The notes under the pieces were generated by a model. That model had not been told where the DNA came from. It ran no database searches and saw only the letters and a program-made list of their open reading frames with translations. This document shows, one piece after another, positions 7,451-61,391 of a stretch of DNA of 64,000 nucleotides (its first letter is position 1; every line of letters begins with the position of its first letter). The stretch is taken from assembly GCA_044378005.1 (NCBI GenBank), contig JBILYB010000011.1. One strand, 5' to 3'. The stretch is from Prosthecobacter sp. GTDB lineage: Bacteria; Verrucomicrobiota; Verrucomicrobiia; Verrucomicrobiales; Verrucomicrobiaceae. The position numbers were made by a program, and so were the translations under genes.

Positions 7451-7489
7451 GTCTTGACCGCGCCCGCCAGCGGCTGAAGAGAAGCCGCC

Positions 7490-8065: not shown

Positions 8066-8213
8066 AACTCCGGCGACTAAATGTCGCAGAACTCAAAAGC
8101 TTCAGAGCAAAACGGGCGCTTTTAGGTGGGCAGCATTTCTCGTTTCATCGAATCCAGACTTACCTACAGCTTGCCGGAGGGGGGTGGAGGTTTCAGGGTG
8201 GCGGGTGCCGACC

Positions 8214-20007: not shown

Positions 20008-20042
20008 AAGACCTGCGCTCGGGTTCCCGTCGCAGTCTGGCA

Positions 20043-23000: not shown

Positions 23001-25400
23001 GATGGCACGAAGAAGGCGCTCTACACCGGCTTCAGCACCGGCAATCAGCAGCTCCGCGTGAACGGCCTGCGCTGGGGCATGGATGGCTGGGTGTATTGCG
23101 CCGCCGGAGCGCATCACGGCGGCTACAATAAAGGCACTCAAATTGAATGCAAGCTCACCGGCGAGAAGATCGACCTCGGCAGCCGCGATTTCCGTTTCAA
23201 GCCAGACACGGGCGAGTTTGATCCGCAGAGCGGCCCCTCGCAGTTCGGTCGTGCCCGTGACGACTGGGGCCACTGGTTCGGCGTGCAGAACAGTTTCCCG
23301 CTCTGGCACTATGTGTTGCAGGATCACTACCTGCGCCGAAATCCGCACGTCATCCCGCCGGACCCGATCCATCAGCTCTTCCCTCGCAATCCGCCCGTCT
23401 ATCCCGCCAGCAGCATGGAGAAGCGTTTCCACAGCTTCGACCAGGCCGGACGCTTCACCAGCGCCTGCGGCATCGAGGTGTATCGCGATGTCGTGCTGTT
23501 TGATGATGGGAAGACGCATGCCTTCACCTGCGAGCCGTTTGCCAATCTGGTTCAGCATCATGTGCTGGAGGATGATGAAGTAACGTTCAAGGCGACGCGC
23601 GATCCCGCCGAGTCGAAGACGGACTTCCTCGCCAGCGAAGACCGCTGGTGCCGCCCCGTCATGGTCCGCAACGGCCCCGACGGCGCGCTGTGGATCGCTG
23701 ACATGTATCGCTACATGATCGAGCACCCGCAGTGGCTGCCGCAAAACGGCAAAGACGAGCTCCTGCCGCACTACCGCGAAGGAGATGACAAGGGACGGAT
23801 TTGGCGGGTTGTTAAAGACTCTTTTGGATCACAACCAGTCTTCGAATGGGACAACCTCCCTATTAACCTTGATTCTTCCAATGGCTGGCTCAGAGACAAA
23901 GCGCAGATGAAAGCGTTATGGAGCGGAGTCGGCGATGCTTTGATCGCCGGCGCAGCCAACGTCAAAGCTCAAACAGCATGGACGCTTCTCATACAAGGCA
24001 AGCTGAAGACTTCCGACTGCATGAAGCTCCTCGGAGACGAGTCTGCGCATGTTCGGGAACAAGCCCTTCAAATGGCCGAGAAGCTCGAATGGAAGGGCGA
24101 CGACTCGTTGCCACTCCATGCCGCTCTCGCGAAGCTCGTAAACGACAAGTACGAGAAGGTGCGGTTGCAACTGGCGTGCTCGTTGGGGGAGTTGAAGTTT
24201 GAGTGGGCGGCGGATTTGCTGGCGGAGTTTTTGAATGCAGTTCCGGCGGGATCATCGTTGCAAGGGGCGGCGATGAGTTCGGTGCTGCCGCATTTGGAGC
24301 GGGTTTGTGAAAGGTTCCCAGAAGGTGGTGAGCCGGAAAACAACGGGGCGATCGGGAAGCTGTTCCAGTGCGCTTTGGCGGAGAAGAACGAAAAAGCTAT
24401 CGCAGCGCTGATGTCGCATTTGGAGGCTAAAATGCATGCGGTGGAGATTCTGGCTGTCCTCAATGAAAAAGACCTCTCGTTGGCTCAATTCGCGAAGCAG
24501 GTGAGTTCGCCGGAGGCGCAGGCGGGATTGAAGAAGATGGCGGACATGCTCGCAAAGGCGTCGGAGACGGTCAAAACGGCGAAGGAGGCTCCGCCGATGG
24601 CGGAGCTGGCGCTGCTGGCCTCGGATCGCGAGCATCGAGAGATGGTGCGTGAGTTGTTGCCGGAGCTTTGGGCGAAGACGGGCAGCGCGGAGGTGCTTCG
24701 ACTGGTGGGACGACTGCAACCGAGGTATGGGCAGACATTTTTGCTGGAGCGCTTTGAGGAGCGCACGCCGACGGTGCGCGGTCAGATCATCGAGACGCTG
24801 CTCTCGAACGATGCGTGGACGCTAGCGCTGTTGAATCGCCCTGAGGCGAAGGCTTGTGACGCGGCGACGCGGGCACGATTGATGAAGCATCCGAAGAAGA
24901 ACATCGCGCAAATGGCGGAGAAGGTGTTTGCGGACTCGACGAGCGCCACGCGGGCAGCGGTGGTGGAGAAGTTCAAACCGGCGCTGAAGCTGACGGGCGA
25001 TGCTGTGAAGGGGAAGGTCGTTTTCTCGCAGGTGTGCATCAGTTGCCACAAACTCGACGGCATGGGCCTAGAACTCGGCCCTGACCTCCGCAGTGTGGTG
25101 CAGCATGACGCGGAGAAGTTGCTCAACTCCATCCTCGACCCAAGCGCGATCATCGAGCCGGGCTTCATGGCGTATCATTGCACGCTGAAGAATGGCGAGC
25201 AGCTCTATGGCGTCATCGCTACCGAAACGAGCGCGAGTTTGACGCTGAAGATGGCCGGGAACCTGACGAAGTCGGTGCTGCGAAGCGAGATCTCAAGTTT
25301 GAAGAGCACGGGCACGTCACTGATGCCGGAGGGGCTGGAGGTGGTGATGACGCCTCAGTCGCTGGCGGATTTGATCGCTTATCTAAAGGTGGCTCGCTGA
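20043..25400 (+). CDS. Large multidomain protein: ceramidase-like N-terminus, LamG-like domains, PVC propeller and CxxCH heme domain
   Basis: SATHTHSAP (neutral ceramidase-like), LamG-like 'GRLDEITVWDR', AAEPVVLDP and NGLRWGMDGW propeller motifs, and CISCH...GPDLRS. Confidence 0.88.
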   Translation: MNLRPLYLLALVLSPILSTAATFRAGVATVDISPTEFPRIIAGGFLEGRGEKLADKLFVRSFVLDDGKMKIAFAIVDTCMMEQSLIDEAKGIASKQCGIPVDRMMVSATHTHSAPAAMGCLGTRKDTVYAKFLTPKIAEAIVAANAALQPARIGWGSFDDWEHTHNRRWIRLPGKEVVDPFGQPTGRANMHPGYLSKDVVGPSGPVDPQLSVIALQTLDGKPLGVLANYSQHYFGSGPVSADYYGHFCRHLAAKMGQQGDGNGPFVCAMSQGTSGDQMWMDYGAEKKTITIDHYAAEVADSALKALQTVKYVDHAPLGMIEKTLELKYRVPDEKRLAWARPIAAKIENDVPKNKEEVYAREALILHERQKTSVKLQSIRIGDLSIATLPNEVYAITGLKLREMSPLGTHFNIELANGATGYIPPPEQHTLGGYTTWPARTAGLEVKAEPSMVDTLSESIAQIAGKPSRPIRPSDSSYSSETLASKPASYFRCDDARSTLTDEVGVEAKLIGGHAFYLPGAGSGLGYDEESALKPSPFSSSHTINRSIHLAGGHLKTSNLKLGTQASIALWFWLGHESGASDRAGELINALGVSLKAHQDAQHHVRLTIGGEETKEDLFADDWHFAVLIRNGENVRVHLDGSEKPVLTGKAGKAESKVLFGKGLDGRLDEITVWDRVVEPELIAKLWNISKVADDNARHAVARKEKAERAQVQTSASLKGHENWSASMRFRNTKANNVSAVTAYLISRGPKGDSQAPGDHLGIGGTYKDSLPGRLFVFNGNAADQIVRGTTVIEPGSWNDVKMERIGSRVKVMLNGKVEIDAELPVTAPGAKEMFFGKRCDDLAPLEGAFEKVEVAGLEKPAAAAPAPKIELASQPLSPEESSKKWHVREGYRIELVAAEPVVLDPVAFDWDEQGRLWVIEMADYPLGMDGNGKAGGRVVRLEDTDRDGRYDKRSVIVSDLSYPTGILTWREGVIVTAAPDIFFISPDGTKKALYTGFSTGNQQLRVNGLRWGMDGWVYCAAGAHHGGYNKGTQIECKLTGEKIDLGSRDFRFKPDTGEFDPQSGPSQFGRARDDWGHWFGVQNSFPLWHYVLQDHYLRRNPHVIPPDPIHQLFPRNPPVYPASSMEKRFHSFDQAGRFTSACGIEVYRDVVLFDDGKTHAFTCEPFANLVQHHVLEDDEVTFKATRDPAESKTDFLASEDRWCRPVMVRNGPDGALWIADMYRYMIEHPQWLPQNGKDELLPHYREGDDKGRIWRVVKDSFGSQPVFEWDNLPINLDSSNGWLRDKAQMKALWSGVGDALIAGAANVKAQTAWTLLIQGKLKTSDCMKLLGDESAHVREQALQMAEKLEWKGDDSLPLHAALAKLVNDKYEKVRLQLACSLGELKFEWAADLLAEFLNAVPAGSSLQGAAMSSVLPHLERVCERFPEGGEPENNGAIGKLFQCALAEKNEKAIAALMSHLEAKMHAVEILAVLNEKDLSLAQFAKQVSSPEAQAGLKKMADMLAKASETVKTAKEAPPMAELALLASDREHREMVRELLPELWAKTGSAEVLRLVGRLQPRYGQTFLLERFEERTPTVRGQIIETLLSNDAWTLALLNRPEAKACDAATRARLMKHPKKNIAQMAEKVFADSTSATRAAVVEKFKPALKLTGDAVKGKVVFSQVCISCHKLDGMGLELGPDLRSVVQHDAEKLLNSILDPSAIIEPGFMAYHCTLKNGEQLYGVIATETSASLTLKMAGNLTKSVLRSEISSLKSTGTSLMPEGLEVVMTPQSLADLIAYLKVAR

Positions 25401-48377: not shown

Positions 48378-50651
48378 ATGAAAGCATGCCGCACACGCAA
48401 AACGCTCTCGTCTCACGCCCGAAAAAGCCTCGTGCTGATGGGCCTCTCAGCCTCGCTCTTCGGAGGGCCTGACGCCGGCGCTCAGACTCCGGCACCCGCC
48501 GCACCTGCTCCCGCGAAGCCCGCGAAAAAGGAGGAGCCCTTTGTCCCCGCGCCGACCATCACTCCGGCAGACATGGAGTACGCCACCAGCATCGCACTGG
48601 CCACTGGGGTGAAAAAGCTCAAGGACCTCGCGAATGCCGACCCCCAGGGCTGGATCATCCCGCCCATCCAGCGCGTGCGCATCACAGGCTACAAAGACGT
48701 GCCCCGCAAGTTCCGCCGGATCGAGATTGACCGGGCCATCTATGAGTACACCGACCTCGTCGTGATGGTGCCCAATCCCTCTCCGGGCGAGCCGCCGCTG
48801 CGTCAGGTGCGCAAGGTGCCCACGAAGCAGATCGGCACGAAGAAAGAAACCATCATCCGCTGGGACCCAAACGGCACGGAGGAGATGATCGACAAACAGC
48901 CCATCTATGAGCACGTCGGAGACACCTCCTGGCAGTTCAATCTCATCGGCGACTCCGCAATGGCGCTCACCGCCCTGCGGAATGCGGGCCTGCCAGAGAC
49001 AGATCTCGTCATCTACCGCATGACAGAGAACCTGCTGAACTACCTCGACACCTACGGCGCGCCCGACCACACTTGGAACATCGCCCAGCTCGCCATCGCC
49101 CTCTCCCGCACACCCGGGGAGATGGCGGAGGAATGGACAAACAAGCTCGCCTCCCGGCTGCTCGACGGCCAGATCTCCGATGGCCCAGCGCGCGGCCTGT
49201 GGGGGCCGATGTCCATCCACCCGCGCCTCCTCGCCATCGTCATCCGCGACTTCCTCGCCGGTGAAGCAGAGGTGGAAAGGCTCAAGGCAAAGCATCAAAA
49301 GCAACCCACCCGGGCCAACCAACTGCTCATCGATGTCGCCGAAGGTGGCCGCAACCGCTTGAAGAAATACGCCGACTCCTGGTCGCGCAATGCCCTGCGT
49401 TTTGCCTCCGTCGAGTGGCCCCTCGTGTGGGATGATCAACTGGCTGAAAAGGTGCAGTTCGGCGGAGCCACGGAGTTCTTCTACAATCAGCGCGCCGCAG
49501 ACATGGAGAGCACCTGGATCGCCCTCCACGCGCTCTCCGAATGCGCCGCCGCCGGGCGTCTGCCCAAGGAATCCCTGCGCCCCGAAATCCCACCTTCCTA
49601 CAGCTCCCAGGTGAAGTTTGGCGAGGCACCGAAGCCGCAGGCCGCCGTCAAATCCCAGCTCAACGCCACCACCGTGCCGCCGGAGAACGCCATCGCCGTG
49701 CTCGCTCGTGCCGCCAACGCGCTCGTCACCCTGCTCGGCGATGCCTCCGCCTGGAGCGAGGGCAACATCCACCAGCCCGTGACCGACTTTGACACCTTTG
49801 ACAAATACCTCGCCGTGCCCGTCATCGCCGACAGCTTCCCGCCGCTGAACTCGCCCATCACCCCTGTCAGCGCCGCTCAGGGAGTCGCCGCGCTCGACAG
49901 CATCGGACGCGTCGTCGGCATTGAAAAGATGGGCAAGTTCCTGCCCAAGTATGAAGTCGGTGCCAAAGGCCGCGTGATGCTGATGGCCGAGCATCTGTCC
50001 ACGCTTTGGAAGAAGCAGAACCAGAAGCCCAACGCAGCCGTCGCCAACCCGGCGCTCTTCGAGCTGCTCCTAGCCAGCTCCCGCCCGCTGAAGATGCCCG
50101 CCGCCCTCAGTGCCGGTGGTGAAAACCATGCCGACATCTTCACCCGCATGATCATCCTCGCCGCCGATGCCGACGGCTCCTGGGGAGCCCGCTTCAAGCG
50201 CAGCTACCAGACCAGCAGCATGCGCGAGCGCTGGAAAGCCATGTCCGAGATGCCCGGACGCGTCTGGCGGGACTGGCGGGTGAACCTGCCCGTCGATATC
50301 AACAAAGCCCACGTCGCCTACTGGAATCATGCCAGCAGCGAATACACCGTCAGCCCCGGTACACCCTTTGCCACCGCCATCGCCGTGAATTACCTCGCCT
50401 CACGCCTCAAAGATCCCGCCTCGACGATTCCCCGTCTCATGGATGACTCCCGGCTCCCCGAACAGCGCAAAGGCATCGAGACCGTCCTCATCCCGCCACC
50501 ACCACCCCCTCCGCCGCCGAAGCCCAAAGTCGTGGCACCTCCGCCCCCTGCCGTCGCCAAAGCCGCCGAGCCCAAGAAGGTCGAAATCGTCGTGCCCAAG
50601 ATCGAGGACAAGCCCAAGGACGCCACGCCAAAGAAGGACGAGAGTTTCTGA
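48378..50651 (+). CDS. Large secreted hypothetical protein with prenyltransferase-like helical repeats and Pro-rich ends
   Basis: Signal-like N-terminus. 'GDSAMALTAL', 'DMESTWIALHAL' and 'DADGSWG' resemble alpha/alpha toroid repeats. Strong codon bias. Confidence 0.75.
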   Translation: MKACRTRKTLSSHARKSLVLMGLSASLFGGPDAGAQTPAPAAPAPAKPAKKEEPFVPAPTITPADMEYATSIALATGVKKLKDLANADPQGWIIPPIQRVRITGYKDVPRKFRRIEIDRAIYEYTDLVVMVPNPSPGEPPLRQVRKVPTKQIGTKKETIIRWDPNGTEEMIDKQPIYEHVGDTSWQFNLIGDSAMALTALRNAGLPETDLVIYRMTENLLNYLDTYGAPDHTWNIAQLAIALSRTPGEMAEEWTNKLASRLLDGQISDGPARGLWGPMSIHPRLLAIVIRDFLAGEAEVERLKAKHQKQPTRANQLLIDVAEGGRNRLKKYADSWSRNALRFASVEWPLVWDDQLAEKVQFGGATEFFYNQRAADMESTWIALHALSECAAAGRLPKESLRPEIPPSYSSQVKFGEAPKPQAAVKSQLNATTVPPENAIAVLARAANALVTLLGDASAWSEGNIHQPVTDFDTFDKYLAVPVIADSFPPLNSPITPVSAAQGVAALDSIGRVVGIEKMGKFLPKYEVGAKGRVMLMAEHLSTLWKKQNQKPNAAVANPALFELLLASSRPLKMPAALSAGGENHADIFTRMIILAADADGSWGARFKRSYQTSSMRERWKAMSEMPGRVWRDWRVNLPVDINKAHVAYWNHASSEYTVSPGTPFATAIAVNYLASRLKDPASTIPRLMDDSRLPEQRKGIETVLIPPPPPPPPPKPKVVAPPPPAVAKAAEPKKVEIVVPKIEDKPKDATPKKDESF

Positions 50652-50660
50652 GTCTGCCCT

Positions 50661-50701
50661 GTTCGCAGCCCCGCCCTGCGAGCTACGGGACGGAACTCCG
50701 T
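50661..50701 (-). repeat. GTAG-type REP-like hairpin plus adjacent palindrome
   Basis: On the minus strand GTAG-C-TCGCAG-ggcgggg-CTGCGA-AC. Adjacent hairpin ACGGA-AC-TCCGT at 50690-50701. Confidence 0.45.
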
Positions 50702-50710
50702 TCTCCGAGT

Positions 50711-51253
50711 TTAACCCGCCGGAGGAGGCGCGGGAGGCGTCGGCGACTCTTCCTCACCACCGCCGCCCGTGCTCATCACATGACCGGCGATCTTCCAGGC
50801 ACCCAGTACCGTCGGGTCATTGCGGAAGCGGTTCTTGATGACGGCATCCAGGCATTTCACCATGTCCGCGCCCTGCTTCAGCAGACCGGGCAGCGACGCC
50901 GTCGCGCCGCCCTGCCCCTGGAGGGCACCGCCCTGGGAGCTTTCCGCCTCCTGCACATCCAGCGCTTCAGCATTTAGATCCGCCACAATGTCGCCGTCAT
51001 AACCATGCTCGGTGAAATCGGCGGCCAGATTCAGCTCCGTGATCGCCGTGGCAAAGGCCTGACCGGCGGCCACCAGCAGCGTATCATTCGCCAGCGGCGG
51101 CACCGGAGTTTTTGTGCTTCGGGTGTCCTTCGAGGATTGTCTCGCCCTTTCAGGGCACCGAGCTTTTGGGGCCGCGTTACCCAGGGCGTTGCCCTGGGCT
51201 GAGTTGTTTCGCCCCTTTGGGGCTTGGGCATTTGGCTTCGCGGGTTTCGTCAC
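50711..51253 (-). CDS. Hypothetical protein with a REP-derived N-terminal segment
   Basis: GTG start with an upstream GGAGG. The C-terminal half looks helical and conserved ('LDAVIKNRFRNDPTVLGAWKIAGHV'). Confidence 0.65.
   Translation of the reverse strand: MTKPAKPNAQAPKGRNNSAQGNALGNAAPKARCPERARQSSKDTRSTKTPVPPLANDTLLVAAGQAFATAITELNLAADFTEHGYDGDIVADLNAEALDVQEAESSQGGALQGQGGATASLPGLLKQGADMVKCLDAVIKNRFRNDPTVLGAWKIAGHVMSTGGGGEEESPTPPAPPPAG
51144..51223. repeat. Three-hairpin REP-like element
   Basis: GCCCT-TTC-AGGGC (51144-51156), CCCAGGGC-GTT-GCCCTGGG (51180-51198) and GCCCC-TTT-GGGGC (51211-51223). Confidence 0.8.
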
Positions 51254-51489
51254 GCGGAGGGCTCCTCCCGGTAAAAGTACACATCAAGATCGACACGGTT
51301 TTGGGGCAGCGAAGGCAGCGGGTCGGGCGTGGGCGGCGGCGAGGAGGGGCCGACCGCACCCAGAGTCTCCCGATCCCAAATTCGAGGCTCTGATTCTGCC
51401 TCAGCTAAGCAGTTCAGAGCAAGTGAAGGGGGCCCAAAATAGCACCGCGCCCAGCTCGCGGGTGAGTCTGCCTCCGTGCTCATGATCCA

Positions 51490-51539
51490 CCGCAAAGAGT
51501 ATCGATCCTCAGCCTCTATGATCTCTGCGCTCTTTGCGG
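51490..51539. repeat. Palindromic REP-like element (CCGCAAAGAG type)
   Basis: 10-bp inverted repeat CCGCAAAGAG (51490-51499) and CTCTTTGCGG (51530-51539). Confidence 0.65.
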
Positions 51540-51588
51540 CTCAACTTTTCTAAAACATACCCAGAATGAACCTCAATGAGCGAACACA

Positions 51589-52128
51589 TCAGGCCTTGCC
51601 AGACTTCAGCAGCGCCAGGAAACCGTCGGCTGGGTCGGCATGGCGAGAACGCGTAACCTTCTTGGCGGCGATTTTCTTCTTGGGGGCTTCGAGTTCCTGC
51701 TTCCGCAGGGTGACTTCGACCACATCATAGAGCGAGTACTTGTCCAGAATGTTGGCGATGGCATTGCGGACATCGATCATCAGCATCCGCAGGCCGCAGT
51801 GCTCCTCGTCGGGGCAGGAGCACTTCACATATTCGGTCTCACTGGCGCAACTGATCGGAGCCAGCTTGCCATCAATGAGCCGCACGACATCGCCCATCTT
51901 GATGGACTTCATCGGCTTTGCGAGCTTGGCACCGCCGTATTTGCCGCGAACGCTTTCCACATAGCCCGCGGTGCGCAGTTCCATGAGGATCGCCTCCAGG
52001 AATTTGAAGGGCAGGTGCTCCTGATGCGCGATGTTCGAAACCGAGATGACGCCTTCCTTGTTCCAGTCGGCGATGCCGAGACGAATCATGGTTCTAAGAG
52101 CGTACTCTCCGCGTTTGGTCAGGGTCAT
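51589..52128 (-). CDS. Rrf2 family transcriptional regulator
   Basis: 'TKRGEYALR', 'FLEAILMELR', 'RGKYGG' and a Cys cluster C-x8-C-x-C-x5-C. Start is ATG 52128. Confidence 0.93.
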   Translation of the reverse strand: MTLTKRGEYALRTMIRLGIADWNKEGVISVSNIAHQEHLPFKFLEAILMELRTAGYVESVRGKYGGAKLAKPMKSIKMGDVVRLIDGKLAPISCASETEYVKCSCPDEEHCGLRMLMIDVRNAIANILDKYSLYDVVEVTLRKQELEAPKKKIAAKKVTRSRHADPADGFLALLKSGKA

Positions 52129-52134
52129 GGTGGT

Positions 52135-52220
52135 GGGTGAGAAGATGAATAGCTGCCTATCCCTACGGTGCAAACAGGGATTCGCGACCGTGAAACGACC
52201 CTGGCCTTGTGTTCTCACCC
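52135..52220 (-). promoter_or_regulatory. Candidate structured 5' leader of the Rrf2 gene
   Basis: 9-bp closing inverted repeat GGGTGAGAA/TTCTCACCC enclosing the inner stem ATCCCT/AGGGAT, ending 6 nt before the ATG. Confidence 0.4.
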
Positions 52221-52233
52221 AAAAATGTTGGAT

Positions 52234-52466
52234 TCACTCGGCTCCGCCAGCAGCACGACGGCGCTTTTCCTCCTCATCTTCTTCTTCGTCACTGCCGCCG
52301 CCATAGCCGAGGACTTCGACGGTAATGATGGAGGGTAGCTCTTCTTTGGAGGAGGTGTCGCGGTCTGGGCTGTGGCAGCGGAGTTGGTGGCGGAACTGCT
52401 GCTGTTGGCGGCGCTGATGCCGCTGGTCGGGGCTCCAGTGGTGGCTCCGCCGACGGAGATGTTGAG
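52234..52466 (-). pseudogene. Frameshifted remnant of a filamentous-haemagglutinin family (DUF3739-like) C-terminus
   Basis: Frame A reads LNISVGGATTGAPTSGISAANSSSSATNSAA. Frame B reads SKEELPSIITVEVLGYGGGSDEEEDEEEKRRR-stop. Both resemble the end of these proteins as I recall them. Confidence 0.65.
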
Positions 52467-52658
52467 CGGGGTTCATCCTGATCACCGGCAGAAGCGGGCT
52501 GGTGGTGACACATTATTGACGGGTTGTGCGAATTCACGGCAAAGCCGGATCTCTGACGATGCCTCGTATGGGGTGTAACCCTACCTGGGCAGATAGGCAT
52601 TGCTGCGGCGGGCGAAACTGGGCGATAGCAGATTTTTAGTCCTCATGACGACACTGCG

Positions 52659-54044
52659 ATGAACCCACCTCAAAACATGGAAAGCGCTGGCGTGGCTACC
52701 GCCCCGACCGAGGACAAGCGCACGCGGCTCAAGCGCTGGCTGGACAGTGGCAAGGCGGCGCTGCATCCGCTGACTTTTCCGCAGCGTGAGCTGTGGGAGG
52801 CCTCACCGGTGGCTGTCGCGGATCAGACAAACACGATCTGCTGCTTGATCGAAATCAAAGGTGCGATCACTGAGCAGGACTGCACGGCGGCGATGCAGCG
52901 TGTGGTGAACAGACATGAGGTGCTGCGGCTGTCCTTTCTGCCGAGCAAAGGCCAGGCGGTGCAGATGATCCAGGCGCAGAGCGAGCCGGTGATGCGGTTC
53001 CGTGACCTGCCATCGTCATCGGCGAGATCGGAGGCGGTGGATGCGGCGGCGCAGGAGACCTTCGACGCGCCTTTCGATCTGGTGCAGGGGCCGTTGTATC
53101 GTGTGGAGGTGCTGCGGCGCTCGCCGACGGATCATGTGCTCGTCGTGGCGATTCATCATGCGATTGCCGATGGCTGGTCGCTCGGCGTGCTGGTGCAGGA
53201 TTTGTATTCGGCTTACGCGCAGGGGATGCTGGGCGCGAGCGGCGGACTGCCGCCTGTGCCGCAGTCCTACATGGCCTGGGGGGCGGCTGAGCGCGCGCTT
53301 TGGCAGCCTGCGCTGCTGGAGCAAAGAGCGGCATTTTGGAAAACGCATCTCGCTGGTTCCTCTCGGCTTTGGGATGATCGCGCGGATGCGCTGGATGAGT
53401 CGGATCAATTGCAGCGGCGCATTGCCGGTGTGTCTGCCGAACTGGGCCTCGCGGTGCGTGAATTAGCACGACGCACGAGCGCAACACTGTTCAGCACTTT
53501 GCTCGCGGCCTTTCAAATCACGCTGTCGCGATGGACCGGCGTGACTGACATCGTGGTGGGCACACCAGTGGCAAATCGCGCACGTCAGGAAGTACGCGAG
53601 ACGATGGGCTACTTCTCCAGCATCGTGCCCTTGCGCGGGCAGGTGGATGATAGCCGCTCGTTCTCCGACAGCCTCCGCGCCGTGCATCAATCGACGATGG
53701 ATTGCTTTGCCAATGCCATGCCCTTTGCCGAACTCGTGAGCGCAGTCGATCCACCTCGACTGCCGGGTCGCAATCCCATCTATGAAGTGCGTTTTGCGCT
53801 GCAAAACCAACCTGTACCCGATCTGGCAGTGGCGGGGTTTTCCGTCCAGCTCAAGATCCGTGCCACGGGCACACCGCGATTCGATCTCGCCTGTGAAATC
53901 ACGGAAGAAGGTGATGGCTTGGAAGTCGTCTGGTTGTTCCGCTGGAGCCGCTTTTCTCAATCGGAAATCGAGGAGCTGCATCGTCTCTTTCTCACCGTCC
54001 TCACCGCCGTCTGCGCCTCGCCCGACAGCCGACTTTCGATCTGA
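52659..54044 (+). CDS. Stand-alone NRPS condensation domain protein
   Basis: 'PLTFPQRELW', 'RHEVLRLSF', active-site HHAIADG, 'FDLVQGPLYR', 'VVGTPVANR' and 'PRFDL'. No A or T domain. Confidence 0.92.
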   Translation: MNPPQNMESAGVATAPTEDKRTRLKRWLDSGKAALHPLTFPQRELWEASPVAVADQTNTICCLIEIKGAITEQDCTAAMQRVVNRHEVLRLSFLPSKGQAVQMIQAQSEPVMRFRDLPSSSARSEAVDAAAQETFDAPFDLVQGPLYRVEVLRRSPTDHVLVVAIHHAIADGWSLGVLVQDLYSAYAQGMLGASGGLPPVPQSYMAWGAAERALWQPALLEQRAAFWKTHLAGSSRLWDDRADALDESDQLQRRIAGVSAELGLAVRELARRTSATLFSTLLAAFQITLSRWTGVTDIVVGTPVANRARQEVRETMGYFSSIVPLRGQVDDSRSFSDSLRAVHQSTMDCFANAMPFAELVSAVDPPRLPGRNPIYEVRFALQNQPVPDLAVAGFSVQLKIRATGTPRFDLACEITEEGDGLEVVWLFRWSRFSQSEIEELHRLFLTVLTAVCASPDSRLSI

Positions 54045-54050
54045 TCACCC

Positions 54051-55010
54051 ATGAACAACACAGCAACACCTGAAAATGTGATCGAACTGCCCGGAAGGCA
54101 TTCCGTAGACAGCACGGCCTTCCAGTTGCTCGTGATCGCACTGGCTGTGACGGAGCTGGGGATCATCGCGGCGGTGATGCGAGGCTGGTTTTGGCTCGTG
54201 GTGCCGCTCGCTCTGGTGGCGAGTCATTTCATGCATGGCGTGCTGGTCGGGTTTCATGAAGCGTCACACGGTTTGCTGCGTCGGAACCGGCGCTTCAATG
54301 AGTTCGATGGTGTGCTCACCGGGCTGTTCAGCTTCACGAGTTTCAGCCTGTATCGCGCGGCGCATCAGACGCACCACGCCTTCCTCGCCACGGAGCGCGA
54401 TGAGGAGCTGTGGCCGTTCGTCGATACGACAAAGCCACGCTGGGCCAGGCGGCTCTTCGCGTTCCTCGAACTCAATCTGGGCCTGCTGTTCACGCCGTTT
54501 CTGTTTTTGCGGACATTCTTCCGCCGAGGCTCGCCGATCCGTAACAGAAAGGTGCGTCGGCGCATCTGGGCGGAGATCATCATGATCGTCGTCGTGTGGA
54601 CCAGCGTGCTGTGGGCGGTGACGCACTGGCAGGTGTGGACGTATTTTTTGTGGATGTATGTCGTGCCCGGTGTGCTGGCCGCGAACATGCAGAGCTGGCG
54701 CAAGTACATCGAGCACGTCGGTCTCACAGGCGGCACGGTGAATGGTGCCACGCGCAACATCGTGTCACAGACACCGCTCGGGCGCTTCCTCGCCTACACG
54801 CTGCTGCATGAACCCTACCACGGTGTGCATCACCTGCACTCAGGCATCCCGCATGATGCTCTGCCGCGCTTTTTGCCCGAACTCGATCCCACCCGACCCG
54901 ACGAGCAGCCACTGTATCCGAGCTACTGGAGCGCGGTGAAACACTTGGTCCGCAATCTCGCCGATCCGCGCGTGGGAGCGCAGTGGAACAACGACCCTTT
55001 TCAATCATGA
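54051..55010 (+). CDS. Membrane fatty acid desaturase family protein
   Basis: Three His boxes (HEASH, HQTHH, HGVHH) and several TM helices. Confidence 0.9.
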   Translation: MNNTATPENVIELPGRHSVDSTAFQLLVIALAVTELGIIAAVMRGWFWLVVPLALVASHFMHGVLVGFHEASHGLLRRNRRFNEFDGVLTGLFSFTSFSLYRAAHQTHHAFLATERDEELWPFVDTTKPRWARRLFAFLELNLGLLFTPFLFLRTFFRRGSPIRNRKVRRRIWAEIIMIVVVWTSVLWAVTHWQVWTYFLWMYVVPGVLAANMQSWRKYIEHVGLTGGTVNGATRNIVSQTPLGRFLAYTLLHEPYHGVHHLHSGIPHDALPRFLPELDPTRPDEQPLYPSYWSAVKHLVRNLADPRVGAQWNNDPFQS

Positions 55011-56584
55011 CGCGTCTGCGCTCAGTCATACTCTTCTGCACCTCGATGATGCTTCTCCCTGCATGTCAGGGGCTCACAAGCACATCGGGTTCGCATTTGG
55101 ACAAAGCTCATGCGGCCTGGCAGGTGATGCAGCGGGAGACGCCAGACACTGTGGCGTCGCAGAAAGCGCTGAAGGTGTATGATCGGGCGGTGGTCGCTGT
55201 CGTGAGGTCTCTGCGCCAGCATGAAGGCACCGCCGCATGGGGAAAGGTAGTCCAAATAAGCGGGGCGAAGCCGTGGAAGCTGACTTTTGAAACGGCCACT
55301 CAACGAGACTCAGCGCCGACACTGGCGCTGTCCGAGTTTGCACACTGTTGGGTGGCCTCCGACGTGAAGCTGAGCGGATTTGACCGCGTTGTCGTGCATG
55401 GCGGACTGGGCGTGCCGGTGGTGCTGGCGCAGGATGATCCACTTCGCGCTACGCGGCCTTTTCATCCGCCGAAGGGTGAGTTTCTTCCGGCGACGGCGGT
55501 GCTTGAGTTTCCTGATGCTGCCGAAGCAAGGCTCCGATTTTACGACCCGCTGACTGTGTCAGCCATCAAGGTAGGCAGGCACTCATTGCCCATGGCAGAG
55601 AATCTCACAGCCCCGCTACAGTTCTCTTTAACAGACTCGACCATCGACGAGAACGGTTCGGATCGCCTAGCGCCTTCTGCATCAGGTGAGGATGAGTCGA
55701 AGCTGTTTTTCCTCCATCGCTATGACCGAACCAAAGTGCCGGTGGTGTTCGTGCATGGACTGCGCACGGGGCCGGTCGTCTGGAAGAATACCGTCAATGC
55801 CTTGCTCGCTGATCCTGAACTGCGCCGCCGTTATCAGCCCGTGTGTTTTGTTTATCCATCAGGCCTACCCATTCCAACGTCTGCGGCCCGACTGCGAGAG
55901 TTGCTCAAGGCATCGCGCGAGAAGCTTGATCCTGATCATGGCGATGCTGGATTCGACCGCATGGCACTCGTGGGGCACAGCATGGGCGGCTTGCTGGCGC
56001 GTATGCAGGTCATTGATTCCGGGAAGGATTTCTGGCGCTCCTTCTTTGCAGCCTCACCGGAGAAACTGGCGGGTGAGATCGATCCAAAAACGGAACGCAT
56101 CATGCGAAGTGCGCTGTTCTTCAAACAACTGCCCAATGTAAAGACCGTTGTGTTCATCAGCACGCAGCATCAGGGCAGCGAACTCGCTGACAGCGGTATC
56201 CTCCGGGGCATCGCCAAGCTCATTTTATTCCTGCCCAAAACAGCACGAAGCAGCGTGAAGGCCTTAACCGAGCTGCCGCCCACGTTGATCAATCCGACCT
56301 TGCGTTCATTCCAAGGCTGGGGCGTGGAGGGGGTGGAAAACCTTTCCACCAAGCACCCTTACTTCCATGCACTCACGCAGCACTCCATCGACATCCCGTT
56401 TCATTCGATCATCTCCACACGCAACGAGGATGATTACCTCCATGATACCGACGGCGTCGTGCCCTACTGGAGCGCGCATCTGCCTGGAGCCGAGTCAGAA
56501 ACGATCATCCCCTACCCACACGGATGCTTGGAGAAACCAGGCACCGTGCAGGCGGTGATGACCATCTTGAAAGGCAAATCATGA
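55007..56584 (+). CDS. Lipoprotein alpha/beta hydrolase (esterase/lipase)
   Basis: Lipobox LLPAC, VFVHGL, GHSMGG, DGVVP and a C-terminal His. ATGA overlap with the desaturase. Confidence 0.88.
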   Translation: MTRLRSVILFCTSMMLLPACQGLTSTSGSHLDKAHAAWQVMQRETPDTVASQKALKVYDRAVVAVVRSLRQHEGTAAWGKVVQISGAKPWKLTFETATQRDSAPTLALSEFAHCWVASDVKLSGFDRVVVHGGLGVPVVLAQDDPLRATRPFHPPKGEFLPATAVLEFPDAAEARLRFYDPLTVSAIKVGRHSLPMAENLTAPLQFSLTDSTIDENGSDRLAPSASGEDESKLFFLHRYDRTKVPVVFVHGLRTGPVVWKNTVNALLADPELRRRYQPVCFVYPSGLPIPTSAARLRELLKASREKLDPDHGDAGFDRMALVGHSMGGLLARMQVIDSGKDFWRSFFAASPEKLAGEIDPKTERIMRSALFFKQLPNVKTVVFISTQHQGSELADSGILRGIAKLILFLPKTARSSVKALTELPPTLINPTLRSFQGWGVEGVENLSTKHPYFHALTQHSIDIPFHSIISTRNEDDYLHDTDGVVPYWSAHLPGAESETIIPYPHGCLEKPGTVQAVMTILKGKS

Positions 56585-57306
56585 AACCCTCCGTGCCGGA
56601 CACTCCATCCACGACTTCACCGACCTGCGTCTATGAAGCTGTGGCGCTGAAAAAGAACTACGACGACGGTCAGGTGCAGGCCTTGCGCGGCGTGGACTTC
56701 CACATCGAGCAGGGGGAGTTCGTCGCCATCATCGGCTCCAGTGGTTGCGGCAAAACGACCTTGCTTCAGATGCTCGGTGCGCTCGACAAACCAAGCACCG
56801 GCAGCCTGCACTATCGCGGTGACTCGCTGCCTGATCTGGCAGATCCATCGGCCTATCGTGCGCGTGAGATTGGCTTCATTTTTCAATCGTTTCACCTGCT
56901 ACCGACCTTCACCGCGCTGGAGAACATTCAGATTCCGATGCTGGAAAGCGACCTACCTGCCTCCGAGCGTCGAGGGCGAGCACTCACACTGTTGATGTCG
57001 GTGGGGCTTGAGCATCGCGCGCAGCATTTTCCCTCGAAGCTCTCGGGTGGCGAGCGTCAGCGTGTCGCCATCGCCCGCAGCCTGGCCAACGGCCCGTCGG
57101 TGCTGCTGGCGGACGAACCCACGGGTAATCTCGACAGTGAAAATGCACGGATCATTCTCGATCTCCTGGTGCAACTGCATGAGGAGCAAAAGATGACGCT
57201 CGTGCTGGTCACGCATGACATGATCATCGCCAGCAAGGCCGCGCGCAATTTGCAGATGATGGACGGACGCATCGTCTTTGATGGCACTCCCACTCACACC
57301 CCATGA
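56581..57306 (+). CDS. ABC transporter ATP-binding protein (LolD/MacB-like)
   Basis: GSSGCGKT, LSGGERQRVAIAR, LLADEPTGNLD and VTHD. Confidence 0.95.
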   Translation: MKPSVPDTPSTTSPTCVYEAVALKKNYDDGQVQALRGVDFHIEQGEFVAIIGSSGCGKTTLLQMLGALDKPSTGSLHYRGDSLPDLADPSAYRAREIGFIFQSFHLLPTFTALENIQIPMLESDLPASERRGRALTLLMSVGLEHRAQHFPSKLSGGERQRVAIARSLANGPSVLLADEPTGNLDSENARIILDLLVQLHEEQKMTLVLVTHDMIIASKAARNLQMMDGRIVFDGTPTHTP

Positions 57307-58418
57307 CATTCTTTTCCATCGTTGTCCGCGGTCTCACGCGACGTCCGGTTCGCACCGGCCTTACCTTGGTGGGTATCTCTATTGGTATCGCGGCTGTGGT
57401 GGCGCTTGTCGGCATCTCGCGGGGCTTTGAAAAGAGCTGGGAGACGGGCTTGAAGGCGCGCGGCACCGACATAGTCGTCAGCAAAATGGGCAGCTCGCTG
57501 GCACCGAAGCCGTTCAGCGATGCTGTGGCCGCATTGATCGTGGAGTTGCCGCATGTCGCTGCCATCAGCTCGCAGTTTGTGGAGCTGCTGAGTATCGAAA
57601 GCTCGCAGATGATGATGCTCTCGGGCCGTCAGTGGGATGGCTACGCGTGGAAGAACCTCAAGCTGATCTCAGGACGCATGCCGCTCGATGCCAAAGAGCA
57701 GGCCGTGGTGCTCGGCCAGACGGCGGCAGAAGTACTCAAGAAGAAAATCGGCGACCCGCTGCAAATCGAGACCGCTGAACTGACCGTCGTCGGCATCGTT
57801 GATGGCGGCGCGGTGGTGGAGAATGGCTCGGCCATTCTCGCGCTGCCTTTGCTTCAGGGAATCATGGGCGAGCGGGGCCGGATCAACGTCATCGACGTGC
57901 GCGTCACTCCTGGCACCAGCGAGGCTGAACTGAAGCAGCTTTGCGCGGAAATCGTCCGCGGGGCCCCGGATGTGACCGCGATGGCGGCAGGCGAGCATTT
58001 GAGCAACAGCCAGAGCTTCCGCATGGTGAAAGCCATGAGCTGGGGCACCTCGCTGCTGGCCGTGCTCGTCGGCGTGCTTGGAGTCATGAACACGATGCTT
58101 ATGACCGTCTTCGAGCGCAAACAAGAGATCAGCGTTCTGCTGGCGCTCGGTTGGAAACCCAGCCGCATCGTGCGTATGGTGCTGTGGGAGTCGGCACTCC
58201 TCGGTTTCCTCGGTGGCATCGCAGGAGTGTTGATCGGCGTGGCAGGCATCAAACTGCTGCAAGAAACAGAAGCCATCCGTGGATTGCTCGAACCTGACCT
58301 CGGCATCGGTCTTCTACTCACTTCTATTGTCATCGCTGTCGTCGTTGGCGTCATGAGCGGTCTCTACCCCGCCTGGCGCAGCTCCCGCATCACTCCGGCG
58401 CTGGCGCTGCAAGGCTGA
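57303..58418 (+). CDS. ABC transporter permease (FtsX/MacB/LolC-like)
   Basis: 'RTGLTLVGISIGIAAVV', a periplasmic domain, 'ERKQEISVLLALGW' and 'GLYPAWR'. Confidence 0.93.
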   Translation: MTFFSIVVRGLTRRPVRTGLTLVGISIGIAAVVALVGISRGFEKSWETGLKARGTDIVVSKMGSSLAPKPFSDAVAALIVELPHVAAISSQFVELLSIESSQMMMLSGRQWDGYAWKNLKLISGRMPLDAKEQAVVLGQTAAEVLKKKIGDPLQIETAELTVVGIVDGGAVVENGSAILALPLLQGIMGERGRINVIDVRVTPGTSEAELKQLCAEIVRGAPDVTAMAAGEHLSNSQSFRMVKAMSWGTSLLAVLVGVLGVMNTMLMTVFERKQEISVLLALGWKPSRIVRMVLWESALLGFLGGIAGVLIGVAGIKLLQETEAIRGLLEPDLGIGLLLTSIVIAVVVGVMSGLYPAWRSSRITPALALQG

Positions 58419-58431
58419 ACTTTTTAATCCT

Positions 58432-59184
58432 ATGAAAACTATCCACACACTCATCACCTTCGCGCTGCTCGCCTTGTCCGCGAATGCCGCCGACAGCGCC
58501 ATCGAACTCGCCGCCAAACTGAGCGCTGCGCAGCAGGATGGCGCCTCCCTCGTGCGTTTGAAAATGGAGGTGCGAGGAGTCACGCTGCAACTCCAGATCA
58601 AGCAACGCCGCAGCGCCAGCGCCACCGAGGTCGTCTATCAAATCCTCTGGCCCAAAGAGCGTCTCGGCGAATCCGTGCTGCTGAAAAAAATCGGCAATCA
58701 AGCCGCCATCGGCACCCTTTTCGTGCCACCCGTCACCGTGAGCCAGCTTGACATGAAGGATGCGCTGTTTGGCAGCGACGTGTCCTATGCCGATGTCCTC
58801 GAAAATTTCTTCGCGTGGCCCAATCAGACCATCGTCGGCACCGAAGTCGTGAATCGCGTAAGTTGCCAGATCCTCGAATCCAAACCCGGCAAAGGCCAGC
58901 GTTCCAACTACGCTGCCGTCCGCACCTGGGTGGACCCGAAACGCAACGTACCTTTGCGCATCGAGAAATACAACGCCGCAGGCCAAGTGATGCGCCGCAT
59001 AGACTCTGGTCGCGTCGTCACGGATGACATCGGTCGGCAGGTTCCGACGGGCCTCACTGTGACCGATCCGACCAAAGGTTCATCCACCGATTTGGACGGC
59101 TCCAAACTCAAACACGACGTAACTTTCACCGACGCCGAGTTCACGCCCGAAGGTCTCATACAGGTGACCGTGCCGCAAAGCTGA
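58432..59184 (+). CDS. Outer-membrane lipoprotein-sorting (LolA-like) protein
   Basis: Signal peptide, 'LFGSDVSYAD', 'CQILESKP' and 'PLRIEKYN'. Confidence 0.8.
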   Translation: MKTIHTLITFALLALSANAADSAIELAAKLSAAQQDGASLVRLKMEVRGVTLQLQIKQRRSASATEVVYQILWPKERLGESVLLKKIGNQAAIGTLFVPPVTVSQLDMKDALFGSDVSYADVLENFFAWPNQTIVGTEVVNRVSCQILESKPGKGQRSNYAAVRTWVDPKRNVPLRIEKYNAAGQVMRRIDSGRVVTDDIGRQVPTGLTVTDPTKGSSTDLDGSKLKHDVTFTDAEFTPEGLIQVTVPQS

Positions 59185-59186
59185 GT

Positions 59187-59790
59187 AGCTCACACAAAAT
59201 CGGTGCATGAACGCACGGTGAGGCAGTGGAAGCAGCACCAGAGAGACCACGGCACCGAGGCGCTGCTGCTCGCGGACGCCGGATAGGAGATTGGGGCAAG
59301 CTGACCGCGGCGCAAGAGAAGCAAATCCGAGGACTCATTGCCGACAACCTTCCCGAGCAGTTGAAGCTGTCTTTCGCCCTGTGGATACGCAAGGTGGTGG
59401 ACGAGCTGCTGTAGCAGCAGTTTGGCCTCAAGCTGCCGGTGCGCACATCTCAAGCGCACGGACTTCACACCGCAAATGCCCATTAAAGAAAGCCTATGAG
59501 CAGAACACCAAAAAGGTGAAGGCGCGGCTGGAGCAGGAGTAACCGCAGATTGCGGCAGTATCCAAAGCCGAGGGAGCGGAGATCTACTGGGGCTACCAGA
59601 CTGAAGACAACAATCAGCCCAACGCACCCAGGGATTTTTGCGCCGCGAGGACAAACGCCTGTCATCAAGCAGATATCCAAACGCTTCGGCAGCTCGGTGA
59701 TGAGAGCGGTGAGCGACCGGAGGAGCACTCAGGCTCTGGTTTACAAGGGAGCGCTGGACGCAGTTCTGCTCATTCGCCTAGTTTGTCATA
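59187..59790 (+). mobile_element. Degraded IS630-family transposase remnant
   Basis: 'VHERTVRQWKQ' HTH, 'LPEQLKLSFALW', 'FGLKLPVRT', 'FTPQMPIKKAYEQ', 'AEGAEIYWG' and 'APRGQTPV', spread over several frames with in-frame stops. Confidence 0.85.
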
Positions 59791-59907
59791 CGCCATGGCC
59801 GAAACACTGCGGAATGGCAGGCCGATCTCAGAATGGTGTGCAGCCTCTCCATGGTTCACTGGCAGCGGGGTCAGCGAATAAGGCTGCTTGGAGGTGGTGA
59901 CTCAAAG

Positions 59908-60300
59908 TCACTCTGCAGGCTCGCGACGCTTCATGGTAAAGCGCTCAATGCCTTTGCGCATGACGGGGACATTGAAATTGGCCAGCAGTCCCGACCTTAA
60001 ACCACTCAGACGGAGCAATGTCTCCATCTTCTGGCGATCCAGATCGAGCACGTGCTCACTGGAATACACCTGCACAAGACAGGCATCATCGACGATGAGG
60101 TCCAAACGGGCTGCGCTATTGATGCGATGCCCCTGGTAATCAAAGCTGAGCGCCGCACCACGCTCCACTTTCAATTCGAGACCGCGAAGCTCCACGGCGA
60201 GACATTCTTCATAAGCCTCACGCATCAAACCCGGACCAAGCGTACGATGAACCGTCATGCATGCGCCGACGATGAGATGCGGAAGATCGACCGAAATCAT
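59908..60300 (-). CDS. GxxExxY family protein, degenerate variant
   Basis: 'IVGACMTVHRTLGPGL..AYEECLAVEL', 'RLDLIVDD', 'GLLANFNV' and 'GIERF'. Confidence 0.85.
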   Translation of the reverse strand: MISVDLPHLIVGACMTVHRTLGPGLMREAYEECLAVELRGLELKVERGAALSFDYQGHRINSAARLDLIVDDACLVQVYSSEHVLDLDRQKMETLLRLSGLRSGLLANFNVPVMRKGIERFTMKRREPAE

Positions 60301-60566
60301 GGAAGATAGAAGCAATGCAATTGCATGAGGAAAAGCTGGGTGCGTTAAACCGTATGTATGGAAGTTATCGAAAATAAGCCATTTTTGCAACCCGGGATGC
60401 GTTTGGCTCCAAACTTCCACCCGAACCTTTGAATTCGTGAACGACATTCGGAAAACCGGTCTCCATTTTGCTTATCGAGGGAGTGATCACCTCGCAAACC
60501 ACCACCAAAGATTCCCAATTTGAGAATTGCGTATATATTTAACTTATATTAAGTTTACTCAATTTT

Positions 60567-61391
60567 ATGAACCCTTTTAATACATTCCATGTTCTCTCGG
60601 TGTGCCGAGTTTTGGCTGGGCGAATGGGACTGGCTTTCGTTGCTGTCTTGATCACTTCCTGTGGGTCGGCGCCTAAATCTGAAGTCGTTGTCAGCGTGAA
60701 AGACCAAAAGCTGGGACTCTACGACGCTGGTGTTTTGAAGAGGGAGTTTCCCATCTCGACCTCCAAATTCGGCATCGGTGATCAGCCCAACAGCTACCGC
60801 ACTCCCTTGGGCAAGCATGAGATCATCGCCAAAATCGGTCATGGACTGCCCACGGGGGCTGTTTTGAAGAGCCGCTCTTGGAATGGCGAAGTGCTCAAGC
60901 CGAATGCGCCTGGCCGCGACCCCATCGTCTCTCGCATTCTCTGGCTGCGCGGTATGGAAGGAACGAATCGCAACGCCATGAAGCGTTACATTTACATCCA
61001 CGGCACGACCGAGGAGTGCAACCTCGGTAAACCTGCCAGCTATGGATGCATTCGCATGGGGATGAAGGACGTGGTGGAGATCTTTGAAGTCGTTGGAATA
61101 GGAGCTAAAGTCGTGATCACACGGGATAGACTTCCTGCAGGTAGCAAGGCTGAAGAAGCCAAGCCGACACCCGAGGAGGAATCCATCGTTGCGGAGAAGA
61201 AGCCTGAAGCACCAGCCACGTTTGACACCGTTCCAACAGCAGCAGGTCCGGCAGATCAGGCCAAAGAAAAGGCTGATCAATCGACAACTGCCCCTGTGGC
61301 AAAATCCAAGTCCAAGAAGCCAGCCACCAAGGCCGAAAAAATCACTACCGGCAATCGTCGGAACAGCACAGGCCACCTGGCACACGGCTGA
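60567..61391 (+). CDS. L,D-transpeptidase (second copy) with disordered C-terminal tail
   Basis: Lipobox-like ITSC, 'VSVKDQKL' and catalytic 'YIHGT...ASYGCIRM'. Confidence 0.9.
   Translation: MNPFNTFHVLSVCRVLAGRMGLAFVAVLITSCGSAPKSEVVVSVKDQKLGLYDAGVLKREFPISTSKFGIGDQPNSYRTPLGKHEIIAKIGHGLPTGAVLKSRSWNGEVLKPNAPGRDPIVSRILWLRGMEGTNRNAMKRYIYIHGTTEECNLGKPASYGCIRMGMKDVVEIFEVVGIGAKVVITRDRLPAGSKAEEAKPTPEEESIVAEKKPEAPATFDTVPTAAGPADQAKEKADQSTTAPVAKSKSKKPATKAEKITTGNRRNSTGHLAHG

Follow-up and report, generated by a model that had tools for sequence, protein, structure and literature searches.

By analogy of parts, the described systems closest in function to the locus reported here are the mycobacterial Pks/Pap pathways, although the locus is not a member of them. 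These pathways comprise Mas, PapA5, DrrABC, MmpL7, and LppX for phthiocerol dimycocerosate (PDIM), Pks2 with PapA1-2 for sulfolipid, and Pks3/4 with PapA3 and Chp2 for polyacyltrehalose (PAT) (PMC4183827, PMC11539658). PDIM is moved outward by the ATP-binding cassette (ABC) transporter DrrABC and the LolA-fold carrier LppX (PMC11539658), and Chp2 is a periplasmic alpha/beta-hydrolase-type enzyme that remodels PAT (PMC4183827). Aryl polyene clusters carry their own LolA-like (ApeL) and LolB-like carriers and a transporter, with localization to the outer membrane (ApeL/M/N; PMC8253772). Here we describe a six-gene operon of a Prosthecobacter sp. (assembly GCA_044378005.1, here G000; 6.7 Mb in 337 contigs). 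It lies at positions 52659-59184 of the window, by which we mean the whole stretch of 64,000 nucleotides that was analyzed (C79:3569-67568). We consider it highly likely that the six genes are the distal half of a conserved verrucomicrobial polyketide synthase (PKS) cluster that was split by one reciprocal rearrangement, and that the two halves together probably make and export an envelope lipid. As reconstructed from the loci compared, the ancestral cluster has an AsnB-like amidotransferase on one side and, on the other, the order PKS, condensation (C) enzyme, desaturase, (hydrolase), ABC ATPase, MacB-type permease, LolA-like protein.

Like the mycobacterial pathways, this cluster combines a fully reducing type I PKS without a thioesterase, predicted to act iteratively and to give methyl-branched chains, with a separate HHxxxDG acyltransferase of the C superfamily that would off-load the chain onto an acceptor. 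Both further have an ABC transporter and a LolA-fold carrier, and a hydrolase-type remodeler is possible. The parts themselves differ, however. The C enzyme is of the nonribosomal peptide synthetase (NRPS) type and is no relative of PapA5; methyl branches would come from an in-line C-methyltransferase using S-adenosylmethionine (SAM) rather than from methylmalonyl-CoA; there is no fatty acyl-AMP ligase and no MmpL, and the pump is of the MacB type, not the DrrABC type. The cluster further includes a membrane desaturase and an AsnB-like amidotransferase, and it occurs in a diderm, a verrucomicrobium. Aryl polyene, xanthomonadin, and flexirubin clusters are similar in being lipid or pigment clusters with their own LolA-like carrier and transporter, but they rely on type II fatty acid synthase (FAS)-like enzymes, an RND/MMPL exporter, and lysophospholipid or glycosyl acyltransferases, and they have no type I PKS, C domain, or MacB-type pump. 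Literature searches found no published description of the cluster reported here or of its product. The biosynthetic logic is familiar, the combination of parts and the product are undescribed, and the natural split is unusual.

The case for a larger ancestral cluster comes from 11 related genomes with the C gene (of 25 in the genus) and from 21 further loci in GTDB genomes. At all 12 of the 12 loci in the related genomes, the C gene is immediately preceded by a PKS gene in the same orientation, 0 to 60 nt away, and every one of the GTDB-genome loci with upstream sequence likewise has a PKS directly before the C gene. In Brevifollis gellanilyticus and on long metagenome scaffolds, a PKS of ~2,570 amino acids (aa) directly precedes C, and the desaturase, (hydrolase), ABC ATPase, permease, and LolA-like genes come after it. 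The PKS of homologous loci, 2,570 to 2,590 aa long, is a type I enzyme with the domain order KS-AT-DH-cMT-ER-KR-ACP, the last being the acyl carrier protein (ACP), and has no thioesterase or other release domain; no second carrier protein is encoded in the cluster. In relatives, the C gene starts with a GTG or TTG overlapping the PKS TGA, and the N terminus of the protein reads M-S-E-(M/I)-(A/V)-(T/I)-E-D-K-R-T-R-L.

The distal part of the cluster is equally regular. Wherever a homologous locus reaches beyond C, the desaturase gene is next, and the order desaturase, ABC ATPase, MacB-type permease, and LolA-like protein seen in the window is that of all loci long enough to tell. The hydrolase varies; beyond this genome it was found only at L004/5, L016, L031, L035, and G012:C8, a minority of loci, and the transport trio is kept without it at L001, L002, L017, L021-L023, L026-L029, L032, and L033. 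Most loci have a gene for an AsnB-like glutamine amidotransferase (TIGR01536) that is transcribed divergently from the PKS; one locus has it downstream of the LolA-like gene instead, and because of this locus we count it as a cluster member. An earlier note on this DNA, made without database searches (the sequence-only reading), had suggested as a fallback that the operon is the surviving half of a larger cluster, and with a PKS upstream of C in homologous loci this was right. The same note had held that its preferred account would fall if homologous loci always carried adenylation/thiolation or PKS genes and matched a described cluster; the PKS genes are indeed always there, and no described cluster matches.

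Several loci depart from the common pattern. In a Chthoniobacter sp. metagenome-assembled genome (L002:113-1160, L003), an IS200/IS605 Y1 transposase gene and a 197-aa open reading frame (ORF) precede C, 1.1 kb from the contig end; this possible exception to PKS adjacency could mean that the cluster was split a second time, independently. G012 carries two full paralogous PKS-C clusters (C8 and C26), whose C proteins are 93% and 60% identical to the query, and the C gene of another relative (G390:C22) has an in-frame TGA. When window positions 54051-56584 are compared with L016-L032, relatives with C, ABC, and permease proteins 90 to 97% identical to those of this genome have a desaturase that is only ~63% identical, L025 (95%) being the exception. 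The hydrolase is present or absent independently among loci, and its best match reaches only 63%. This pattern suggests a mosaic cluster shaped by recombination between divergent cluster alleles.

No PKS adjoins the C gene in the window, where an Rrf2 gene and 440 bp lie upstream. The genome does have one orthologous PKS, on another contig (C239:9337-17109); it shares 79% identity with the PKS of Brevifollis. No stop interrupts its 2,590-aa reading frame, and the KS Cys/His/His, AT GHSVGE/HPFH, MT, ER, KR, and ACP GLDSL motifs are intact. The AsnB gene is divergent from it (7189-9177), and AsnB together with the GGGGTGAAACCCTACC element between AsnB and PKS is present at C239:7189-9336. Carrier domains number seven in the genome, one of them the PKS ACP; there are several small stand-alone ACPs. 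The locus is a split variant of the cluster, with the PKS in trans only. The suggestion that the acyl donor is supplied in trans was correct, and that of a truncated relic does not fit, since C239 carries the PKS ortholog in intact form. A 1,798-aa ORF in the window (20004-25400, + strand) was considered as the missing synthase and rejected. It encodes an unusual lipid-related multidomain protein of DUF7133/ceramidase-like type, with a neutral ceramidase N-terminal domain, Laminin_G_3, DUF7133 (E 5e-141), and a cytochrome c domain.

The break can be followed codon by codon. G012, the closest relative, has a C protein 93% identical to the one here; its alignment runs without interruption along C239:5072-17102 and continues, 10 nt on, at C79:56270-62744. 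On C239, the PKS stop codon is followed by GTGAGGATGGCT, the first 4 to 5 codons of the old C gene; on C79, the old sequence resumes at ACC GAG GAC AAG (T17-E-D-K) after a new ATG and 16 new codons. Judged from these remnants, the cut falls after the PKS stop codon and before codon 6 of the ancestral C gene. The remnants on the two contigs are complementary at the codon level, and we therefore take them to have arisen reciprocally from a single break that neither duplicated nor removed any sequence. Assembly or binning error does not account for the split, which is real and stable. Contigs (Logan) from four independent lake-water runs span both junctions with 0 to 1 differences, the depths at the two junctions match within each run (10.1/12.4, 10.4/8.1, 6.7/6.8, and 34.1/34.4), and the C-side junction was found in about 20 lake metagenome runs from 2020 to 2025. 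We also tried to read the type of rearrangement from synteny of the Rrf2 neighborhood in relatives; gene order in the genus is too scrambled for this, and inversion and translocation are indistinguishable.

The operon itself consists of six co-oriented ORFs, all on the + strand in the ORF listing. It begins with the free-standing C enzyme (52659-54044, 461 aa; PF00668, E 1.6e-72), which is followed after a 6-nt gap (TGAtcacccATG) by a membrane di-iron desaturase/hydroxylase (54051-55010, 319 aa; PF00487 FA_desaturase, E 7.8e-36). Three ATGA overlaps lead through a lipoprotein alpha/beta (Ser) hydrolase, the optional module (55007-56584, 525 aa; Abhydrolase_6, E 4.8e-7), and a LolD/MacB-like ABC ATPase (56581-57306, 241 aa; PF00005 ABC_tran, E 5.7e-34) to a MacB-type permease, of the FtsX kind with four transmembrane (TM) segments and a periplasmic core domain (57303-58418, 371 aa; PF12704 MacB_PCD, E 8.8e-22; PF02687 FtsX, E 1.8e-20). 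After a last gap of 13 nt comes a secreted LolA-like carrier protein (58432-59184, 250 aa; PF17131 LolA_like, E 3.2e-22). Pfam confirms all six gene assignments, and the orientation, junctions, and motifs that the sequence-only reading had named were all correct. Its statement that the operon holds no adenylation (A), carrier, KS, or thioesterase gene was also borne out and extends to the rest of the window.

Individual proteins carry the expected motifs. The desaturase has the His boxes HEASH, HQTHH, and HGVHHLH and belongs to PF00487 (124.6 bits against a cut-off of 29.7); its best NCBIfam match is far under the cut-off, and neither this protein nor the hydrolase found an informative match in PDB sequence searches. 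A lipobox (LLPAC) and a GHSMG motif are present in the hydrolase, and Walker A of the ABC ATPase is GSSGCGKT. The LolA-like protein has a signal peptide without Cys (...LSANA/AD), and it matches PDB 4z48 (E 1.3e-8). The export genes resemble both LolCDE-LolA and DevBCA, the heterocyst glycolipid exporter, in having a type VII (MacB-like) ATPase and a 4-TM permease with a periplasmic domain; the periplasmic LolA-fold carrier is shared with the former, and LolD- and DevA-like scores are high. Unlike those systems, this one has a single permease gene and no DevB-type adaptor gene in the operon, and its carrier falls in PF17131 (LolA_like/TP_0789-like), with no match to the canonical LolA model. 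The scores stay under the equivalog cut-offs for LolD (TIGR02211, 247.7 against 307.75), LolC/E (TIGR02212, 56.8 against 362.45), and DevA (TIGR02982, 183.7 against 295.8).

The C protein is the product of the sole C-domain gene in the 6.7-Mb genome. It scores 245 bits against PF00668 (cut-off, 30.6), which places it in the superfamily, and its HHAIADG motif occupies residues 166-172, with H166, H167, D171, and G172 invariant across 26 homologs. Its AlphaFold2 (AF2) model (predicted local distance difference test score, 83.4) has a two-lobe CAT-like fold; Foldseek matched it to 6p1j (E 1e-34; template modeling [TM] score, 0.80), and TM scores to Txo2, DhbF, TycC, HtmB2-CT, TomBC, and SgcC5 are 0.74 to 0.83. 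The enzyme is a canonical NRPS-type C domain, nearest to Txo2, DhbF, and TycC. It does not fall in the PapA5-type families, with 19.8 bits against NF006787 (cut-off, 396) and 16.4 against NF006788 (cut-off, 539). The family to which it belongs is free-standing, ~450 aa long, and found in Verrucomicrobiota, with >2,200 matches, the top 120 at 61 to 100% identity; identity to the C proteins of 26 loci is 50 to 94%. VibH, SgcC5, and C_T domains such as HtmB2-CT, free-standing or terminal C enzymes whose acceptors are not carrier bound, likewise have the stand-alone C fold and an intact HHxxxDG, and the cluster here encodes no acceptor carrier protein. SgcC5 and HtmB2-CT are among the structural neighbors (TM scores, 0.77 to 0.81), and VibH is not among the top matches. 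The donor here would be a reduced polyketide bound to the PKS ACP, whereas theirs are aminoacyl or aryl groups on a peptidyl carrier protein.

Both ends of the presumed PKS-C contact are kept in this genome. On the side of the C enzyme, this is a conserved, basic N-terminal helix, EDKRTRLKRWLDSGK (positions 20-30 in the model), and on the PKS side a conserved acidic tail at the C terminus, EDVDLD(A/S)ISDDDLDQLLG; the tail peptide reads EDVDLDALSDDDLDQLLG... Ahead of the helix, C residues 1-16 are new and disordered in the AF2 model, with ancestral sequence from near T17 (window about 52702-52707), the point at which the rearrangement broke the gene. Gene callers elsewhere place the C start at M7 (52677), giving 455 aa. 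Just upstream, on the + strand, there is a possible five-codon upstream ORF, MTTLR* (52645-52662; ATG ACG ACA CTG CGA TGA), read from the sequence. Its TGA overlaps the ATG at 52659, and this candidate ATGA overlap with the new C start recalls the ancestral coupling of PKS stop and C start.

A further link between the two halves is a cluster-specific cis element. Boxes 1 and 2, ATGGGGTGTAACCCTACCTGGGCAGATAGGCATTGC, lie on the + strand at 52568-52603, a 36-nt block 56 to 91 nt upstream of the C ATG; 35 of the 36 nt are identical to the AsnB-proximal copy on C239, where the counterpart is in AsnB orientation. Box 3, CGATAGCAGA (52623-52632, + strand), stands 20 nt past box 2, and its sequence and spacing match the AsnB upstream region in this genome and in close relatives. 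The 20-nt spacer is kept in length but unrelated in sequence between the two copies, while CGATAGCAGA is identical, which argues for function rather than a very recent copy. The core pattern, GGGGTNNAACCCTACCTNGGCA, has three copies in the 6.7-Mb genome, two between AsnB and PKS and one before the C gene. The three boxes, GGGGTGAAACCCTACC, GATAnnnnTTGC, and CGATAGCAG, are present upstream of AsnB in close relatives and partly in distant ones, with CGATAGCAG standing 4 to 7 nt before the AsnB ATG. We think that the element is probably a promoter or operator that coregulates both halves.

As to how the C operon came by its copy, a single deletion was rejected because the orientation is wrong, and a single inversion was rejected because AsnB would lose its boxes, contrary to observation. 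Outside the window, at C238:4144-5076, there is a truncated second copy of AsnB (residues about 340-647) with 87% DNA identity to the C239 copy, beside a short dispersed repeat. This fragment may be the trace of an older partial duplication of the cluster.

We imagine that the two halves work as follows. The single-module PKS would iterate to build a reduced, SAM-methylated, methyl-branched acyl chain on its ACP. To dock on the PKS, the C enzyme would use its basic N-terminal helix, which would bind the acidic tail (EDVDLDxxSDDDLDQLLG), and it would free the chain by forming an amide or ester bond with a free acceptor, an amine or an alcohol. Because the cluster encodes no carrier protein besides the PKS ACP, we take the acceptor not to be carrier bound; an amino compound that the AsnB-like enzyme produces, or amidates afterward, is one candidate. 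The membrane di-iron enzyme would desaturate or hydroxylate the lipid, and the MacB-type pump would extract it from the inner membrane and hand it to the LolA-like periplasmic carrier for passage to the outer membrane. The lipoprotein hydrolase could serve as an optional periplasmic accessory for trimming or transacylation. Trimming at the outer membrane, which the sequence-only reading had made a regular step, depends on this hydrolase, which is absent from most homologous clusters. PKS and C are always separate polypeptides, so that the split alters their linkage and need not affect the chemistry. One can go further and envision that the family makes an outer-envelope lipid of freshwater and soil Verrucomicrobia that belongs to no described class: a polyketide with methyl branches and a desaturation or hydroxylation, amide-linked to an amino head group and then amidated. 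In this genome, on that view, the cluster would have undergone fission, and a new start codon together with a copy of the regulatory element of the cluster would have saved the detached half, keeping the two halves in one regulon. This fuller picture is tentative, and we regard it as possible rather than likely.

Other accounts of the operon have to be set against the same observations. The sequence-only reading had centered a lipid operon on an orphan C domain fed by acyl-CoA or FAS acyl-ACP, that is, a self-contained tailoring and export operon independent of any PKS. Some C-type enzymes do use acyl-CoA or acyl-ACP donors, and the lack of a carrier, KS, or A gene in the operon and window and the several small stand-alone ACPs of the genome would fit. 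That description is nevertheless misleading, since homologous loci carry a C-methylating, fully reducing type I PKS directly upstream. The translational coupling of C to the PKS in all relatives, the retention of the docking helix and the PKS tail, the intact PKS in this genome with no other release domain, and the cis element common to the two loci all make PKS independence quite improbable. A narrower idea, that 55007-59184 is a private Lol-like pathway with the coencoded lipoprotein hydrolase as its cargo, is attractive insofar as the hydrolase has a lipobox and sits directly upstream of LolD-, LolC/E-, and LolA-like genes. The trio, however, is conserved in most clusters, most of which lack the hydrolase, and its scores are far under the LolCDE equivalog cut-offs; of the accounts considered, we give this one the least credence and think it very improbable indeed.

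That the halves are uncoupled and the pathway nonfunctional, with its genes heading for loss, would agree with the frequent absence of the cluster within the genus, the IS630 remnant that adjoins the operon, the truncated AsnB copy on C238, the new and disordered C N terminus, and the in-frame TGA in the C gene of one relative. We nonetheless think decay unlikely, given that the six ORFs and the PKS (2,590 aa) all have uninterrupted frames and intact catalytic motifs, that the same arrangement recurs in about 20 lake metagenome runs from 2020 to 2025, and that the boxes are conserved despite a diverged spacer, which argues for selection after the split. The reading that we prefer, the distal half of a split PKS cluster whose halves still act together, has its own difficulties. 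The cluster is patchy (11 of 25 genomes in the genus) and therefore dispensable and often lost. Iteration by the PKS is assumed from its single-module architecture, and the acceptor and bond type are purely inferred. The RNA evidence consists only of short metatranscriptome contigs from close relatives, 98 to 99% identical to the C and desaturase genes, for which DNA carry-over is possible. An Rfam scan of 50600-60600 found no family at the cis element, the element matches no sigma-70 consensus and a sigma-70 scan gave no promoter, and simple models do not explain how the C operon acquired its copy.

The flanks of the operon lie outside the conserved cluster. Upstream and divergent is a gene for an Rrf2-family regulator (51589-52128, - strand; PF02082, E 5.1e-35); no Rrf2 gene stands beside the cluster in any relative, and Rrf2 orthologs there are in unrelated contexts. 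Between it and the C operon is a putative gene on the - strand (52234-52485), a low-complexity ORF of 83 aa, Gln/Arg-rich and then with an acidic tail, which has no family match. The upstream pseudogene claimed earlier could not be verified; this Rrf2 gene and low-complexity ORF are what is found there. The claim of an insertion sequence scar downstream is supported by sequence similarity: a probable remnant of an IS630-family transposase, frameshifted (about 59211-59800, + strand), matches annotated IS630 transposases (plasmid copies) in tblastn (E 3e-10, 28% identity). Its frame is broken in at least three places, it has nothing significant in Pfam (DDE_3 only at E 0.18) or NCBIfam, and no other copy was found in the genome; a GxxExxY/PDDEXK_3 gene comes after it. 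GC content is 0.59 to 0.62, the same as in the flanks, and so gives no support to the proposed island. An Rfam Acido-Lenti-1 RNA motif lies at 51180-51224 (+ strand; 43.7 bits against a gathering threshold of 37; E 2e-7), inside a - strand ORF (50711-51253). A repeat there that had been taken for a REP element translated into a protein N terminus may be this RNA motif.

A sample of 400 genomes from across the phylum yielded only 3 further carriers. In metagenomes, the cluster has thousands of homologs; little is known of the envelope lipids of Verrucomicrobia, which are abundant in lakes and soils. The cluster is directly testable in a cultured carrier, Brevifollis gellanilyticus, and the short conserved cis element offers a handle for finding its regulator. 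The split arrangement indicates that the presumed contact of PKS and C functions with the two proteins encoded apart. The logic of an iterative PKS, a trans-acting C enzyme, and dedicated ABC/LolA-type export parallels that of the mycobacterial virulence-lipid pathways, here built from unrelated parts and in a diderm.

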